Shown here: in pieces, positions 21,886 to 28,060 of the stretch | Layout of the letters: each line of letters begins with the position of its first letter | Numbering within the stretch: position 1 is the first letter of the stretch | Assembly: GCF_013167455.1 (NCBI RefSeq) | Contig: NZ_CP038328.1 | From: Escherichia coli O157:H7 | GTDB taxonomy: Bacteria; Pseudomonadota; Gammaproteobacteria; Enterobacterales; Enterobacteriaceae | Direction: 5' to 3' (one strand) | DNA length: 64,000 nt | Translations under genes and position numbers: made by a program | The notes under the pieces: model-generated | Database searches by the model: none | What the model saw: only the letters and a program-made list of their open reading frames with translations | What the model was told of the DNA's origin: nothing

Positions 21886-22353
21886 ATGTCTGCCGTACTG
21901 ACCGCTGAACAAGCCCTGAAATTAGTGGGTGAGATGTTTGTTTATCACATGCCATTTAACCGCGCATTGGGGATGGAACTGGAGCGTTACGAAAAAGAGT
22001 TCGCACAGCTGGCCTTTAAAAATCAGCCAATGATGGTGGGCAACTGGGCGCAAAGCATTTTGCACGGCGGGGTCATTGCGTCGGCGCTGGATGTCGCCGC
22101 CGGTCTGGTGTGCGTAGGAAGTACCTTAACCCGCCACGAAACCATCAGTGAAGATGAACTACGCCAGCGGCTATCGCGGATGGGGACCATTGATCTTCGC
22201 GTCGATTATCTGCGCCCAGGCAGAGGCGAGCGTTTTACTGCTACCAGTAGCCTGTTGCGTGCAGGCAATAAAGTCGCCGTCGCCCGCGTTGAATTACACA
22301 ATGAAGAACAGCTTTATATTGCCAGTGCCACCGCCACCTATATGGTAGGTTGA
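21886..22353 (+). CDS. yigI: Hotdog-fold thioesterase YigI
   Basis: Start at internal Met [18 protein letters not shown] (155 aa); position between pldA and rarD. Confidence 0.8.
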
Positions 22354-22404
22354 AGACATAAAAGCAGGTAAACTGCTGTTACCAATTAAAAATGAGTATT
22401 CCCG

Positions 22405-23292
22405 ATGGATGCAAAACAAACGCGGCAGGGCGTATTACTCGCTCTTGCCGCTTATTTTATTTGGGGTATAGCCCCAGCGTACTTCAAGTTGATTTACTAC
22501 GTGCCCGCCGATGAGATCCTGACGCATCGCGTGATCTGGTCGTTTTTCTTTATGGTGGTGCTGATGAGCATTTGCCGCCAGTGGTCCTATTTAAAAACGC
22601 TGATTCAGACGCCACAGAAAATTTTTATGCTGGCAGTCTCTGCCGTGCTGATTGGTGGCAACTGGCTACTGTTTATCTGGGCGGTGAACAATCACCATAT
22701 GCTGGAAGCGAGCCTTGGTTACTTTATTAACCCGCTGGTGAACATTGTGCTGGGGATGATTTTCCTCGGCGAGCGATTCCGCCGGATGCAATGGCTGGCG
22801 GTGATTCTGGCGATATGTGGCGTGTTAGTCCAGCTGTGGACTTTTGGTTCGCTACCTATTATCGCGCTGGGGCTGGCATTTAGTTTTGCCTTCTACGGCC
22901 TGGTGCGCAAGAAGATTGCGGTAGAAGCACAAACCGGCATGTTAATTGAAACCATGTGGCTGCTGCCCGTGGCGGCGATTTACCTGTTTGCTATTGCCGA
23001 CAGCTCAACCAGCCATATGGGGCAAAACCCGATGTCGCTGAATTTACTGCTGATCGCCGCCGGTATTGTCACTACCGTACCGCTGTTGTGTTTTACCGCC
23101 GCTGCCACGCGCCTTCGTCTCTCAACGTTAGGCTTTTTCCAGTACATTGGCCCGACGCTGATGTTCCTGCTGGCTGTGACGTTTTATGGTGAAAAACCGG
23201 GTGCCGATAAGATGGTGACTTTCACCTTTATTTGGGTGGCGCTGGCAATTTTTGTGATGGATGCGATTTATACGCAGCGTAGAAAAAGTTAA
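22405..23292 (+). CDS. rarD: EamA/DMT-family transporter RarD
   Basis: 295-aa polytopic membrane ORF MDAKQTRQGVLLALAAYFIWGIAPAYFKL... recognised as RarD. Confidence 0.9.
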   Translation: MDAKQTRQGVLLALAAYFIWGIAPAYFKLIYYVPADEILTHRVIWSFFFMVVLMSICRQWSYLKTLIQTPQKIFMLAVSAVLIGGNWLLFIWAVNNHHMLEASLGYFINPLVNIVLGMIFLGERFRRMQWLAVILAICGVLVQLWTFGSLPIIALGLAFSFAFYGLVRKKIAVEAQTGMLIETMWLLPVAAIYLFAIADSSTSHMGQNPMSLNLLLIAAGIVTTVPLLCFTAAATRLRLSTLGFFQYIGPTLMFLLAVTFYGEKPGADKMVTFTFIWVALAIFVMDAIYTQRRKS

Positions 23293-23338
23293 GAATTAAC
23301 ATGGGTAGGCCGTTTAAAGAGCCTACCCACTGACTTAT

Positions 23339-23653
23339 TTATCTTTTTTTGAAAAAAATTAAGATAAGAAAAAGAACAATATTTGTTACAGGAAATCCCC
23401 CCAAAACTCCCCAGTACTTACTCCATCCTAGAGACATCGTATATCTACCAAGGATTTGACAAAACCCAAAACTTAACCCTATACCTATACTTCTTAAATT
23501 TAATGTCGTAGTCAGGCTTAAAATAAATAGAACAAGGATGGTAATAGCCCACCACAATAACCATGCCTTAACAAAATCAGATTTTTTGCTGTAAGGTTCT
23601 TTACCCAAGAACAACTGCCAAAAGTTACCATTTCCCATATAGAATCCATTCAC
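23339..23653 (-). CDS. Hypothetical small membrane protein (104 aa)
   Basis: ORF in AT-rich DNA with two clear hydrophobic segments (WLLWWAITILVLFILSL; FPVTNIVLFLILIFF); no family recognised; this is where E. coli K-12 has yigG, but I cannot confirm equivalence. Confidence 0.45.
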   Translation of the reverse strand: MNGFYMGNGNFWQLFLGKEPYSKKSDFVKAWLLWWAITILVLFILSLTTTLNLRSIGIGLSFGFCQILGRYTMSLGWSKYWGVLGGFPVTNIVLFLILIFFKKR

Positions 23654-23853
23654 CCAAGATATTGTTTATAGAATAAAAATACATTCCAATTATATTTAAT
23701 TAAAATATACCCCATCAATAAAAACTTACACACTCTAAATTACTACTGTATAGTTATCAATGCAAAGACTGCTATATTGCATATATATATGCAAACCACA
23801 TAATTCAGGTAATATATATTCAAAACAATTATATATATAAAACAATGTAAAAA

Positions 23854-24240
23854 ATGTTCAAATCATCCATCAGAAATATATTCTACCCATCCAAGCTTGA
23901 GCGTTTATCACGCTTTCAGTTCATAATCTATACATTAACATCATGGTCAATATTAATAACTTTGAATGATATCAACCTGGCTTTGAGTTTTATTCTGGTT
24001 ATTAATAATACCTATGTAAATATCAATATTGGAGCAAAAAGAATAAGAGATACTGGATGTAAGGCAATCTACTTTGTATTGATTTCATTGGGTTTGACAC
24101 TTTTTTCTATTATCTCTGCAGCAATTGAAGGGGTGAGATGTGAGTCATTAAGCGTCCAACTCAACGTGGCATGGATATTATTCACAACAATTATGTTATC
24201 TGCGATTCCCTCTGCTAAAATGTCGCTGTCAGCACACTAA
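23854..24240 (+). CDS. Small inner-membrane protein, DUF805-like (possible yigF/yigG equivalent)
   Basis: 128-aa ORF in AT-rich DNA; motifs LERLSRFQF and KRIRDTG...IYFVL resemble the N-terminal R-rich and RRLHDxxxSxWW signatures of DUF805 proteins as I remember them; tentative. Confidence 0.55.
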   Translation: MFKSSIRNIFYPSKLERLSRFQFIIYTLTSWSILITLNDINLALSFILVINNTYVNINIGAKRIRDTGCKAIYFVLISLGLTLFSIISAAIEGVRCESLSVQLNVAWILFTTIMLSAIPSAKMSLSAH

Positions 24241-24264
24241 CTTACTCACAGCGACATCGTATAG

Positions 24265-24408
24265 TTACAGCCAGTTCTTGCGCTTAAAGTACAGATACGG
24301 TGCCAGGCCCGCGAGGATCATAAAGATAATCGCGCCTGGGTAGCCGAAACTCCACTTCAGTTCTGGCATAAACTCAAAGTTCATGCCATAGCTGGAGGCA
24401 ATCGGCGT
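24265..24408 (-). pseudogene. Orphan duplicate of the corA 3' end (last ~44 codons, including stop)
   Basis: 24265-24384 is near-identical (about 2 mismatches in 120 bp) to 25976-26095, the 3' end of intact corA, and encodes [44 protein letters not shown]; similarity decays over the next ~25 bp. ORF track shows this as part of a 67-aa ORF 24265..24468. Confidence 0.85.
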
Positions 24409-24597
24409 AGGAAAAAGTTTCCTAATCGGTAAATTCAATATTTTGTTATTAACAATGAGCAAGACCAATCATTAACGACGTTCTCTTCAGAGATGTAATG
24501 AAAAAATGTGAAGTGTACTTCTTTTTTAAATATTTTTTTACCCTAGCATTTGTTCTCAAATTGATATTGAGCTTAAATATAACCAAGGAAAATGTAA

Positions 24598-25446
24598 ATG
24601 AATAACACATTACTTCCATCAATTAATATTCCCTGTACACTTTTCGAAACTATTAGTTTATTTGATAATTATTCTGCTGATGATATGCAATATGGTGATA
24701 TGGTAGAACAAGATTTTCTCTCACTCGGCCTAAGCGATATCTCAGCAAAAGTTGATCCTTACAGACTTATTAAATACCATTTCCCTGGCCCAGGTTCTAT
24801 TAATGTTGCTTTTAGTGCCTCAAGTTCCGGAACAAAAATATCACAACGTGAATGCACTGATATTTTATTTGCAGAAATGAAAGAACTAGCAAAAATGTTT
24901 TCCTTTTTTGGACAATATAAAACACTTATCGAAGATCTGATTGAACATTTTAGATATGGAAATGGCAGCAATTTTCATAGCCAACAATTAAATTTATCTT
25001 TTCATGAAAAAATAAATAAATATGGTTATAATAGTCCAATACGAATAATCAAAGAATGTATCGAAAATGGCATTAATTCAACTCCCTCGACAGGATACCA
25101 ACCTCTTATCCTGCAAAGCATTAAAACCAAATTACTTTCATCAAGACTAAATAAATTTAATGACTTCGAGGACAGTTTTAATGGCTTAGGAATCAGTGTT
25201 CATGATATTTCAGCTCAAAAAATATCTCTTTTAAGTTTTCAAAAATACGCTATAGGATGGAGTGCAACAATTCATTTTGTAGCACAGGACCACTTCGGTC
25301 TTGATGTAACTGATATCAAAAACAAGACTTACAGCAAATATAGATTTTTTCGCATATGGTTCTTTTTACAACGGCATAAAGACTTTGCTTTCAAACCTTT
25401 TTTCACCAATTTTAACACTATCGAAAGAATCGAAAATTATCTATGA
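24598..25446 (+). CDS. Hypothetical protein, 282 aa, no export signal, family not recognised (cassette gene A)
   Basis: Long ORF in strongly AT-rich DNA (by eye about 30-35% G+C; not computed), where chance long ORFs are unlikely; AAGGA Shine-Dalgarno about 8 nt upstream of the ATG; stop overlaps the start of the next ORF (ATGA at 25443-25446); no N-terminal hydrophobic segment. Confidence 0.75.
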   Translation: MNNTLLPSINIPCTLFETISLFDNYSADDMQYGDMVEQDFLSLGLSDISAKVDPYRLIKYHFPGPGSINVAFSASSSGTKISQRECTDILFAEMKELAKMFSFFGQYKTLIEDLIEHFRYGNGSNFHSQQLNLSFHEKINKYGYNSPIRIIKECIENGINSTPSTGYQPLILQSIKTKLLSSRLNKFNDFEDSFNGLGISVHDISAQKISLLSFQKYAIGWSATIHFVAQDHFGLDVTDIKNKTYSKYRFFRIWFFLQRHKDFAFKPFFTNFNTIERIENYL

Positions 25447-25934
25447 AAAGCAAACTCCAAAAAATTATATTATGTTTATTTCTTCTATGCTGCATCTATA
25501 ATTTATGGACATTGCGTCCTGTACAGATTTTGTATACATACTCTGATGCTGGCAATTCAGTCTTTCTGGTCGTTGATCATCTGCCATGGACTGACAGCGA
25601 TAAAATAAATTGGTATCTGAAGCATCAGAATGAAATTAAAAATCAACATCCCCTACCAGAAGGTAGTTGGCATACCTGGTATGTCATTGATATCGGTAAT
25701 GGCTTCACTGACTATAAAAAATATATCGAAGGGCCGTATGAAGATCTCTACTGTTTCCCGACAATTAAGAGCAATGATAATTGCATCACGAAAAATTACT
25801 TAATGGTTATTAATGAATACCCTTATCGTAACACTCATATTGGTATTAACGATTTTACTGAGTATCAATTAACACAAGAAAATAAAATAGAGCAAGTTTT
25901 CAATCCGCATAACTTTAAAAAAGACAATTTTTAG
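25443..25934 (+). CDS. Hypothetical exported or membrane-anchored protein, 163 aa (cassette gene B)
   Basis: ATG overlaps the stop of gene A (translational coupling); N-terminus MKSKLQKIILCLFLLCCIYNLW has a basic n-region and about 15-residue hydrophobic core (signal peptide or signal anchor); same low G+C as gene A; family not recognised. Confidence 0.7.
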   Translation: MKSKLQKIILCLFLLCCIYNLWTLRPVQILYTYSDAGNSVFLVVDHLPWTDSDKINWYLKHQNEIKNQHPLPEGSWHTWYVIDIGNGFTDYKKYIEGPYEDLYCFPTIKSNDNCITKNYLMVINEYPYRNTHIGINDFTEYQLTQENKIEQVFNPHNFKKDNF

Positions 25935-25940
25935 AAATAA

Positions 25941-25968
25941 GCCGGATAAAAAAATAGCTTTATCCGGC
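25941..25968 (-). terminator. Hairpin terminator immediately downstream of corA
   Basis: 10-bp inverted repeat gccggataaa / tttatccggc with 8-nt loop; on the minus strand it is followed by a T-rich tract, so it reads as the corA terminator; on the + strand it follows cassette gene B without a T-run. Confidence 0.6.
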
Positions 25969-25975
25969 ACTCATA

Positions 25976-26926
25976 TTACAACCAGTTCTTCCGCTTAAAG
26001 TACAGATACGGTGCCAGGCCCGCGAGGATCATAAAGATAATCGCGCCTGGGTAGCCGAAACTCCACTTCAGTTCTGGCATAAACTCAAAGTTCATCCCGT
26101 AGCTGGAAGCAACCAGCGTTGGCGGCAGGAACACGACGGATACCACCGAGAAAATTTTGATGATGCGGTTCTGCTCGATGTTGATAAAACCCATTGCCGC
26201 CTGCATCAGGAAGTTCACCTTCTGGAACAGGGATTCGTTATGCGGCAGCAGGGATTCGATATCTCGCAGGATTTCACGCGCCTGCTCCAGTTGCCCACCC
26301 GGTAAGCGTGCTTTACGTACCAGGAAGTTGAGCGCGCGCTGGGTATCCATCAGACACAGGCGCACTTTCCAGCCGATATCTTCCAGTTCCGCCAGAGTGG
26401 AGAGCGCCTCGTCGTACTCATCGCCCTGATGCCCTTCCATAATCACCCGGCTCAATTGCTCCAGGTCGCTATAGATATTTTCAATTTCATCTGCCAACTG
26501 TTCGATTTTGGTTTCGAACAGATCCAGCAGCAACTCGTAGGCGTTACCGTCTACCATCGACTGGCTACGGGCACGCATACGATACAGACGAAAAGCGGGC
26601 AGTTCACGCTCACGCAGAGTAAACAGACGACCATCACGGATGGTAAATGCCACAGTGGAGTTACCGGCGTGATCTTCCGCATCTTCAAAGAAGAAGAAGG
26701 AGTGAATATGCAGGCCGTCATCGTCTTCAAAGAAACGTGCCGATGCTTCGATGTCTTCCAGTTCCGGGCGGGTTGCCAGGCTCTGGCCAAGTTCAGATTG
26801 TACGCGCAGTCGCTCGTCGTCGTCCGGTTCGACAAGATCAATCCATACTGCATTTACAAGGGGTTGTGACTCTTCGACTTCCAGCCGGGTCAGTCGGTTA
26901 TTTTCCAGTTGAAATGCGCTCAGCAT
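25976..26926 (-). CDS. corA: Magnesium/cobalt transport protein CorA
   Basis: Recognised CorA sequence ([31 protein letters not shown]... [11 protein letters not shown] ...KRKNWL, 316 aa); start at internal Met of the 321-aa ORF. Confidence 0.95.
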
Positions 26927-27295
26927 GACCGGGACTCCCAATGCTTAAAATATCGGACAGTTCGGTGGGCACACAGAAACAAATTGGGTTTCAGACCATT
27001 AAACAGCCTGACTCAGCGCGACGGGAAAAATTGAGGTCGCTGACAACCGCTAAGGCTATCAGCAAAAAGGGATAGCCTTAGGAGTTGATCCTGGATGACA
27101 GGATAGTGAGCCAGTATCTACTGGGTGTGTCCAAGGCGAATGTCCTCTTAGAGTGATCGTGCGCGCATGTTACGCCAGCAAAATTTTGCCGTCAACACGC
27201 AACAGAACACCACAGAACAATAGTTGAACTTCGCGCTTTTTGGTACTCGTCAAGGTCGCTAACAGGATAAAAAAATCCCACATCCAGGACCTATA

Positions 27296-28060
27296 ATGGC
27301 GCATCGGCTACTCATTGGTAAAGGAATGATCACCTTGAATCTCAAACGGATTTTTCTCGCCCTCACCTTACTTCCCTTGTTTGCTGTTGCCGCTGATGAT
27401 TGCGCACTCTCAGATCCAACGCTGACCGTACAGGCGTATACCGTTAATCCTCAAACAGAGCGGGTGAAAATGTACTGGCAAAAAGCCAATGGCGAAGCGT
27501 GGGGAACTTTACATGCTCTGCTGGCGGATATGAATAGTCAGGGTCAGGTGCAGATGGCGATGAACGGCGGCATCTATGATGAAAGCTATGCGCCGCTCGG
27601 TTTGTACATCGAAAACGGTCAGCAGAAGGTGGCGTTAAATCTCGCTTCAGGTGAAGGGAATTTCTTTATCCGTCCTGGCGGCGTGTTTTATGTCGCGGGA
27701 GATAAAGTCGGCATCGTTCGTCTGGATGCCTTCAAAACCAGTAAAGAGATTCAGTTTGCGGTGCAGTCAGGGCCAATGTTGATGGAAAACAGTGTAATTA
27801 ATCCGCGTATTCATCCCAACGTCGCCTCACGTAAAATTCGTAACGGTGTTGGAATTAATAAACATGGGAATGCCGTGTTTTTGTTGAGCCAGCAGGCGAC
27901 AAATTTTTATGATTTTGCCTGTTATGCCAAAGCGAAACTGAACGTTGAGCAGCTGCTTTATCTTGATGGCACGATTTCACATATGTATATGAAAGGCGGG
28001 GCAATCCCGTGGCAACGCTATCCTTTTGTCACCATGATTTCCGTCGAGCGGAAAGGTTAA
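27296..28060 (+). CDS. yigE: Uncharacterised exported protein YigE
   Basis: 254-aa ORF with N-terminal signal-like segment (LKRIFLALTLLPLFAVAADD); matches E. coli YigE as I remember it; divergent from corA. Confidence 0.85.
   Translation: MAHRLLIGKGMITLNLKRIFLALTLLPLFAVAADDCALSDPTLTVQAYTVNPQTERVKMYWQKANGEAWGTLHALLADMNSQGQVQMAMNGGIYDESYAPLGLYIENGQQKVALNLASGEGNFFIRPGGVFYVAGDKVGIVRLDAFKTSKEIQFAVQSGPMLMENSVINPRIHPNVASRKIRNGVGINKHGNAVFLLSQQATNFYDFACYAKAKLNVEQLLYLDGTISHMYMKGGAIPWQRYPFVTMISVERKG

Follow-up and report, generated by a model that had tools for sequence, protein, structure and literature searches.

The 67-codon open reading frame (ORF) on the minus strand at 24265..24468 of the window (i.e., the whole 64,000-nt stretch of Escherichia coli O157:H7 contig NZ_CP038328.1 analyzed here) is best read as a non-functional duplication scar, built around a copy of the corA 3′ end, that marks the seam of a two-gene cassette and acts as a substrate for recombination; we put the probability of this reading at roughly 0.88. 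The corA fragment (also referred to below as the stump, or corA′) is ordinary, and its status as a pseudogene is already on record; the PGAP annotation of all fragment-bearing genomes that we opened flags it as such, with the description [quoted passage not shown]. This truncated 147-nt copy lies 1,711 bp from its intact parent gene, and the two are represented in the window by the following features:

24265..24468, minus strand: corA′-containing ORF of 67 codons (ORF listing).
24265..24411, minus strand: pseudogene derived from the corA 3′ end, with 48 codons and a stop codon; left copy of a direct repeat of 147 nt (repeat search, alignment, PGAP).
24412..24468, minus strand: 19-codon upstream extension of the fragment ORF with a TTG start, without corA origin (antisense of the DUF3289 upstream region).
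25976..26122, minus strand: right copy of this repeat, forming the 3′ end of intact corA (repeat search and alignment).
25976..26926, minus strand: intact corA, 316 aa, WP_000947159.1 (annotation).

A sequence-only reading of this DNA had proposed a 67-aa minus-strand ORF at 24265–24468 whose C-terminal 44 residues equal the CorA C-terminus; the ORF is present at exactly these coordinates, and the 44 residues (YGMN motif, loop, and last transmembrane helix) are identical to those of the intact CorA encoded at 25976..26926. The same reading gave the ORF its own ATG, which we did not find. The start codon is a TTG at 24468, with TAA TGA immediately 5′ of it and a second TTG at 24462; codon 10, which is ATG in most other E. 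coli lineages, E. coli W and O104:H4 among them, is ATA in the O157 strain, where no in-frame ATG or GTG occurs upstream of the Met of the GMN motif. The 23 residues described as unrelated to CorA include 19 foreign codons, as proposed, but residues 20–23 (PTPI) are diverged CorA codons (PTLV in CorA). Against the Pfam CorA model (PF01544), the fragment aligns with positions 246–292 of 292 (E = 1.2e-12), and against TIGR00383 it aligns with positions 273–320 of 320 at 79.8 bits, below the equivalog cut-off of 200.75. While the conserved YGMN is retained in the O157 fragment, the full-length CorA architecture of ~316 aa is not; the N-terminal ~268 CorA residues, representing the cytoplasmic domain and almost all of the first transmembrane helix (TM1), are missing, and no TM1 codons are found upstream of codon 20. 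The ORF contains one hydrophobic segment of transmembrane length (residues ~41–61; Kyte–Doolittle 19-mer window > 1.4), which corresponds to CorA TM2. The fragment cannot form a channel. Its open frame needs no explanation; descent from a genuine coding sequence accounts for 147 nt, and an uninterrupted run of 19 additional codons has a probability of ~0.19 at the local composition.

The two copies of the 147-nt direct repeat (24265–24411 and 25976–26122) differ at eight positions; in O157, six of these mismatches lie within the initial 27 nt, the remaining two within the final 15 nt, and the central tract of 105 nt contains none. In other lineages, six internal differences separate the fragment from corA. 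The cluster of six mismatches at the start of the repeat may represent a gene-conversion edge effect or junction-associated mutation. Recent gene conversion was also considered as a source of the identity across the central 105 nt, and it is possible, as CCA at codon 44 is restricted to the O157 fragment and matches the O157 corA; a retained ancestral state explains the identity almost as well, and we make no claim on this point.

The sequence between the repeats (1.56 kb) contains exactly two genes, both on the plus strand and overlapping by 4 nt, and has a GC content of 26–38%, as compared to ~52% in the flanks. These genes and the other features surrounding the fragment are as follows:

24598..25446, plus strand: DUF3289/YPO3983-family protein, 282 aa, colicin-M-like type VI secretion (T6SS) effector family (PF11692, E = 1.9e-84, 283.8 bits; TIGR03034, 439 bits, cut-off 156 bits).
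25443..25934, plus strand: DUF943 protein, 163 aa, cognate immunity family (PF06092, E = 1.4e-26, 93.3 bits).
24469..24597, no strand assigned: intergenic region between the fragment ORF and DUF3289, AT-rich (26–29% GC) and conserved with fragment-free alleles.
24222..24255, minus strand: hairpin just past the fragment stop, with an 8-bp stem (GTCGCTGT/ACAGCGAC) and an 18-nt loop, followed by ATTTT; native corA-downstream sequence of the hyp128-type allele.
25941..25968, minus strand: terminator hairpin between the convergent DUF943 and corA genes (terminator scan).
23854..24240, plus strand: 128-aa ORF (hyp128), a distant YigG homologue contiguous with the fragment (BLASTP against YigG, 29% identity, E = 3e-5; weak NF008474 match).

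The DUF3289 and DUF943 genes are adjacent and co-oriented, and both exceed the Pfam/NCBIfam cut-offs, as expected for a T6SS effector/immunity pair. A DUF3289 protein has been found to be toxic in the E. coli periplasm, to have a colicin M-like structure, and to be neutralized by its DUF943 partner (Kanarek et al., PMC11148199), and an Aeromonas DUF3289 protein has been identified as a bona fide T6SS effector (Fridman et al., PMC12135965). The pair in the window is a predicted orphan T6SS effector/immunity cassette, with delivery and toxicity/neutralization known for homologues only; the intergenic region at 24469..24597 presumably holds the promoter and 5′ UTR of this effector operon. The hyp128 gene is part of an alternative “filler” that replaces yigG-yigF, and it directly adjoins intact corA in cassette-free strains. 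In three strains without the cassette (MS21-1, 2014C-3011, and O157:H7 Z1835), the hairpin sequence at 24222..24255 is located 3′ of the intact corA. The terminator sequence at 25941..25968 is also found 3′ of corA in UTI89-type and 300490-type alleles and moves with the cassette. No integrase or excisionase ORF was found in the 1.56-kb insert or next to it; the neighboring genes are rarD, hyp104, hyp128, corA, ysgD, and yigE.

Comparison with 5,426 complete E. coli genomes revealed several structural alleles of the interval between rarD and corA. Allele (a), rarD-yigG-yigF-corA, is the K-12 type. Allele (b), rarD-YPO3983-DUF943-corA, contains no fragment and is found in UTI89 and TUM14771, as well as in Salmonella enterica subsp. 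arizonae and diarizonae. Alleles (c) and (d) are stacked; the former (e.g., strain 300490) has the order rarD-yigG-yigF-corA′-YPO3983-DUF943-corA, and the latter, the O157 type, has the order rarD-hyp104-hyp128-corA′-DUF3289-DUF943-corA and is also found in E. coli W and O104:H4. Allele (e), rarD-hyp104-hyp128-corA, contains no cassette. A 3-kb query covering 23200–26200 of the window was 100% identical to O157:H7 strains Z1833 and 2017C-4109, and the fragment with its junction was present in 1,706 of the 5,426 genomes. At its 3′ end, the fragment invariably continues into the corA-downstream sequence native to the local filler (i.e., the K-12-type terminator plus yigF in 300490, and the MS21-1 hairpin in O157), and at its 5′ end it invariably meets one and the same point in the region upstream of the cassette, a region shared with the fragment-free alleles UTI89 and TUM14771. 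Specifically, the 19 foreign codons and a further 129 bp up to the start of DUF3289 are homologous, on the opposite strand, to the YPO3983 upstream region of fragment-free alleles. These 3′ and 5′ flanks indicate that the stump is the displaced tail of the resident corA, and that the N-terminus of the ORF is antisense promoter-region DNA.

We also considered whether the UTI89 allele carries a decayed corA remnant; in the distal part of its rarD-YPO3983 spacer, local alignment scores were below the shuffle mean for both the corA 3′ end (14 vs. 16.6 ± 2.2) and the O157 fragment region (15 vs. 16.8 ± 2.2). With no detectable corA remnant in this spacer, the idea was rejected, and the UTI89-type allele is not a decayed stacked allele. 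A scan of genome contigs for DUF3289 yielded nine loci, with the fragment found in only two contigs, both E. coli-derived and mis-binned into metagenome-assembled genomes; the stump therefore looks like an Escherichia-internal event. In genera other than Escherichia and Salmonella, the DUF3289-DUF943 pair is located elsewhere and not beside corA.

The gap between rarD and corA in E. coli is thus occupied by alternative gene pairs, namely yigG-yigF, the hyp104/YigG-like pair, or DUF3289-DUF943. In the model that we favor, the ancestral event would have joined DNA of the order (upstream region)-DUF3289-DUF943-terminator-corA to a chromosome with its own corA. On the corA side the join would have been homologous, in or beyond corA; the other join would have been illegitimate and, as judged from its product, would have connected a point ~186 bp upstream of DUF3289 to a point 147 nt before the corA stop. 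The incoming corA would then have become the working gene, leaving the last 147 nt of the resident corA attached to its own downstream sequence. The frame that leads back from this stump into the AT-rich upstream DNA of the cassette happens to be free of stops for 19 codons up to a TTG, giving the 67-codon ORF. Since the 5′ junction is identical in two downstream backgrounds, we infer that the junction arose once and was then spread by recombination; with its 147 nt of homology, the stump could allow the cassette to recombine in beside corA whatever lies downstream. The yigGF-type stump in the sampled genome L009 has the K-12-type codons CGG...TTG at its 3′ end, as a crossover within the stump would predict. 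Conversely, homologous recombination between the repeats deletes the 1.7-kb cassette precisely, with the 3′ end of the stump becoming the end of the intact corA.

Such loss could be traced with a synthetic query representing the repeat-to-repeat deletion (23700–24411 joined to 26123–26700), which matched exactly 25 genomes in one piece. The same number is obtained by subtraction, as the hyp104/hyp128 filler is present in 1,430 genomes and the complete stacked arrangement in 1,405. Seven of the 25 belong to the O157:H7 lineage and match at 99.5% identity, their six mismatches being the six diagnostic sites at the 5′ end. In one of these, Z1835, corA is chimeric; its 5′ side presents the O157 corA states at all six sites (CCA, CTG, GTT, GCT, TAC, and GGG), while its 3′ side presents the fragment states at both 3′ diagnostic sites (CGC...CTG), followed by the hairpin found downstream of the fragment, which places the crossover inside the 105-nt identical tract. 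The encoded CorA protein is unchanged (WP_000947159.1). The cassette-bearing Z1833 and the strains Z1835 and Z1836, which have lost the cassette, all belong to one series of O157:H7 isolates from UK cattle. Judged from these sequences, the seven cassette-free genomes of the O157:H7 lineage lost the cassette by recombination across the repeats, as seen in Z1835. The cassette-bearing state is probably ancestral in this lineage, and the deletion derived, because the exact 67-aa O157 ORF is also recorded in O55:H7 str. RM12579 and the vast majority of O157:H7 genomes carry the cassette. Others of the 25 genomes, such as MS21-1 (93% identity), look like carriers of an older cassette-free allele rather than deletions, and the cassette-free allele of 2014C-3011 may represent either the ancestral state or a deletion.

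Sequence evolution of the fragment was assessed in 12 loci representing seven haplotypes. Disruption of the frame in related strains, put forward by the sequence-only reading as evidence that would count against a functional ORF, did not occur, as none of the 12 loci had an interrupted frame. Toward the N-terminus of the ORF, the haplotypes are distinguished by L4P, I10M, and P22R, with three replacement and one synonymous difference in the 19 N-terminal codons; in the CorA-derived part, they are distinguished by Y27D (inside YGMN), S40G, A56T, and P57S. The motif thus reads DGMN in L009, and it reads SGMN in a deposited protein variant (P0038). The complete corA gene, compared among nine genomes spanning the alleles, presented 50 synonymous and no replacement differences, all encoding one identical protein. 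As compared to corA, the fragment-private changes (four replacement and four synonymous) differ (Fisher p = 1.6e-4; p = 0.08 if restricted to the same 45 codons), and neutrality of these changes was not rejected (P = 0.06–0.14; seven haplotypes, a small sample). In this small sample of seven haplotypes, the fragment thus appears to have lost the purifying selection that acts on its parent gene; a weak residual constraint may persist, because no locus has lost the frame and four of the eight fragment-private changes are silent. Amino acid variants in deposited protein clusters, which include at least 15 different replacements, were dropped as a test for selection, as such lists over-represent rare alleles.

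Several observations bear on whether the ORF is instead translated as a single-pass membrane microprotein of 58–67 aa (N-terminus out, TM2, and KRKNWL inside) that modulates Mg2+/Co2+ transport by associating with CorA protomers or by mimicry of the GMN loop. Small transmembrane peptides that regulate Mg2+ transporters do exist (e.g., MgtR and MgtS), and the ORF has a frame that is open throughout the loci sampled, a single clear hydrophobic helix with a basic C-terminus after it, in keeping with the positive-inside rule, and an in-frame ATG at codon 10 in most lineages. It has also been called repeatedly by gene callers; databases list it at 39, 58, 65, and 67 aa, either as “magnesium transporter CorA” or as “hypothetical protein”, among others in the original record of EDL933 (AAG59012.1), in O55:H7, and in Shigella sonnei. 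A weak promoter-like match (9/12) is present on the minus strand at 24559–24532. However, the O157 ORF lacks an ATG, and no Shine–Dalgarno sequence was found at any candidate start of the ORF; duplex energies with the anti-Shine–Dalgarno sequence at the four candidate starts were −2.9 (TTG at 24468), −2.2, +1.5, and −1.5 kcal/mol, as compared to a window background median of −2.4 and to −6.8 for corA and −5.4 for DUF3289. Promoter-like sites in the region were fewer than in shuffled sequences (8 vs. 11.8 ± 2.5), a scan that is uninformative in such AT-rich DNA. No structured RNA was found with Rfam at E ≤ 1 over 22000–28000. A text search of the supplements of the RIBOseq study of intergenic small genes in strain Sakai retrieved no entry naming CorA, magnesium, or the fragment peptide, which counts weakly against translation. 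The 19 N-terminal codons, besides being antisense promoter DNA, have accumulated mostly replacement differences (three, against one synonymous), and replacements in the CorA-derived part affect residues that are invariant in CorA, including Y-to-D and Y-to-S in YGMN. In published structures, TM1 and the cytoplasmic funnel hold the CorA pentamer together, and TM1 lines the pore; the fragment lacks both. Moreover, O157:H7 strains without a separate fragment are viable natural isolates. On this evidence, translation as a CorA-modulating microprotein is extremely unlikely, and we infer that the fragment is not expressed. The suggestion in the sequence-only reading of a membrane peptide interfering with CorA pentamers found support in nothing that we tested, while its preferred view of the ORF as an inert remnant agrees with the RefSeq/PGAP pseudogene flag, the lack of an ATG and a Shine–Dalgarno sequence, the antisense promoter N-terminus, and the presence of replacements never seen in CorA. 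It is likewise highly improbable that the stump gives rise to a ~58-aa single-pass membrane peptide with the CorA GMN loop and TM2 that tunes CorA or another Mg2+ system; the best candidate start for such a peptide would be the ATG at codon 10 of most non-O157 lineages. More modestly, the stump may be kept because it makes cassette excision reversible and harmless to corA.

Two further explanations concern the repeat as DNA. In the first, a site-specific integrative element would have inserted at the corA 3′ end, supplying a new 3′ end in its place and later losing its integrase, and the 147-nt copies would be its attL and attR, as in the case of prophage e14 in icd. In favor of this view, the foreign, low-GC DNA is bracketed by direct repeats, the insertion point is the 3′ end of a housekeeping gene that an element-borne copy keeps intact, and precise loss is found in nature. 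The insert, however, consists of effector and immunity genes only, without a recombinase; the cassette also occurs between rarD and corA without a repeat in UTI89, TUM14771, and Salmonella arizonae and diarizonae, which indicates an alternative chromosomal allele; 147 nt is long for an att core; and the deletion crossover falls within the 105-nt identical tract, as expected of RecA-type recombination. We therefore regard a former integrative element as very unlikely. In the second, the stump would be under selection as DNA, serving as a “spare 3′ end” and arm of homology through which the cassette could be gained and lost reversibly by recombination; this would fit the occurrence of the same 5′ junction in yigGF and hyp128 backgrounds, the K-12-type 3′ end (CGG...TTG) of the L009 fragment, the intact corA after precise loss, and the identity of the O157 fragment to corA over the central 105 nt. 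Any direct repeat, however, would produce all of these features by itself, and none of them demonstrates selection; loss is rare (no more than 25 genomes, as compared to 1,405 with the full arrangement, with some of the 25 probably carrying the ancestral cassette-free allele), and the repeat is decaying, with six internal differences between fragment and corA in other lineages. Such selection is thus unlikely, and a non-functional scar that provides homology for recombination is the reading that we prefer.

Read as a duplication scar, the fragment has little importance as a candidate protein, and older annotations already list a tiny “CorA”; database proteins of 39–67 aa named “magnesium transporter CorA” are to be read as the corA′ pseudogene. 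The stump matters as a marker of the seam at which, in about a third of E. coli genomes, an orphan colicin-M-like T6SS pair has been stacked on an older gene pair beside corA. It also illustrates, in a clean natural case within O157:H7, how a 147-nt repeat mediates the loss of such a cassette without leaving a scar. If they are near-isogenic, Z1833 (cassette present) and Z1835/Z1836 (cassette lost) may represent a natural pair in which the function of DUF3289/DUF943 and of the stump could be studied. Should the microprotein reading prove true, acquisition of a T6SS effector cassette would be linked to altered cation homeostasis.

The fragment is similar to the CorA channel (TIGR00383/PF01544) in its last 44 residues, which are identical and include YGMN, the periplasmic loop, and TM2, but differs from it in lacking the N-terminal ~268 residues. 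As a genomic arrangement, the locus resembles the insertion of prophage e14 in icd of E. coli K-12, where the icd′ (icdC) pseudogene represents the resident 3′ end (about 150–165 bp) orphaned beyond the insert. Like icd′/e14 and other displaced 3′ ends at att sites, the corA locus presents a replacement 3′ end that was brought in, an orphan pseudogene, and direct repeats, and loss of the insert restores the gene. Unlike icd′/e14, it contains no integrase or phage and only two cargo genes, and a repeat-free chromosomal allele of the cassette exists; its duplication is best explained by an illegitimate and a homologous join, and its loss by general homologous recombination. The locus also resembles the orphan arrays of polymorphic toxins (Rhs, CDI, and T6SS effectors), in which a short shared 3′ segment recombines and a truncated orphan is left beside a new effector/immunity pair; DUF3289 loci of Trabulsiella and Huaxiibacter present C-terminal DUF3289 stubs followed by extra DUF943 genes. 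In contrast to these arrays, the displaced stub in the window comes from a housekeeping neighbor, corA, and not from a toxin gene. The founding event, as reconstructed from its product only, would resemble homology-facilitated illegitimate recombination, with a homologous join on the corA side, an arbitrary join on the other side, and a short duplication of recipient DNA.

The 147-nt direct repeat formed by the corA stump (the orphan corA 3′ end, 24265–24411, minus strand) and the 3′ end of the intact corA gene (25976–26122) presented eight mismatches, including six in the first 27 nt beside the junction (24385–24411 vs. 26096–26122), two in the last 15 nt, and none in the central 105 nt. The minimal segment required for efficient pairing in E. 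coli recombination is approximately as long as these mismatch clusters at the repeat edges. This distribution of mismatches would be consistent with a possible gene conversion process acting to homogenise the central part of the repeat and unable to reach its edges.

The corA stump directly adjoins one of two filler open reading frames (ORFs):

23854–24240, plus strand: 128-aa ORF, directly adjoining the corA stump
23339–23653, minus strand: 100/104-aa ORF, the other half of the filler pair

This ORF pair replaces yigG-yigF in 1,430 genomes. PGAP leaves the 128-aa ORF unannotated in the examined O157:H7 genomes. Its product is distantly homologous to YigG (29% identity, E = 3e-5), and the motif N(I/M)N..(K/Q)R(I/L)RD(T/S)G is common to both proteins. 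On the corA side, the cassette encoding the DUF3289 (YPO3983) effector and the DUF943 immunity protein alters only the corA 3′ UTR and terminator, leaving the leader ORF untouched:

~27078–27134, minus strand: ysgD/corL leader ORF (18 codons), upstream of corA and annotated in matching RefSeq records

Searches of E. coli genomes with corA-locus queries also matched 19 places on plasmids; some E. coli plasmids therefore carry corA-related sequence.

Where yigG-yigF and the DUF3289-DUF943 cassette are stacked together, each of the sampled genomes (3/3) presented one broken gene:

L003 1691–2071 (strain 300490): yigG with an internal stop
L009 778–1158 (strain NRZ96052a): yigF with an internal stop
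L010 1530–2377 (strain 1008S19): YPO3983 with a frameshift

This breakage may be due to chance, or may hint at redundancy or incompatibility between the two gene pairs. A decayed form of the cassette locus was found in E. coli BS-04 (L027 1306–2068), where DUF943 is both frameshifted and interrupted by an internal stop. In this strain, the place expected for DUF3289 and the stump is occupied by a partial gene annotated as hypothetical; the cassette thus decayed here independently, by a route that differs from the clean repeat-mediated deletion.

The E. coli locus also occurs, at 98–100% protein identity, on two contigs from metagenome-assembled genomes assigned to "uncultured Alistipes sp." and "uncultured Clostridium sp."; mis-binning of E. 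coli contigs is the almost certain explanation. Salmonella enterica subsp. arizonae and diarizonae (L016 and L019) presented the gene order yigI-rarD-DUF3289-DUF943-corA, as found in E. coli UTI89, with an effector identity of only ~65%, as compared to 98% for CorA and 90% for RarD. Therefore, the rarD-corA gap may be an old hotspot for this cassette, common to E. coli and Salmonella. The diarizonae DUF3289 gene may be frameshifted, as its tblastn match is split into two overlapping segments. In Huaxiibacter chinensis and Trabulsiella guamensis (L018 6365–6918; L020 6642–7725), C-terminal DUF3289 stubs and additional DUF943-like genes lie after a DUF3289-DUF943 pair, and T. guamensis also carries a second full pair; polymorphic toxin loci typically show this orphan-module pattern.
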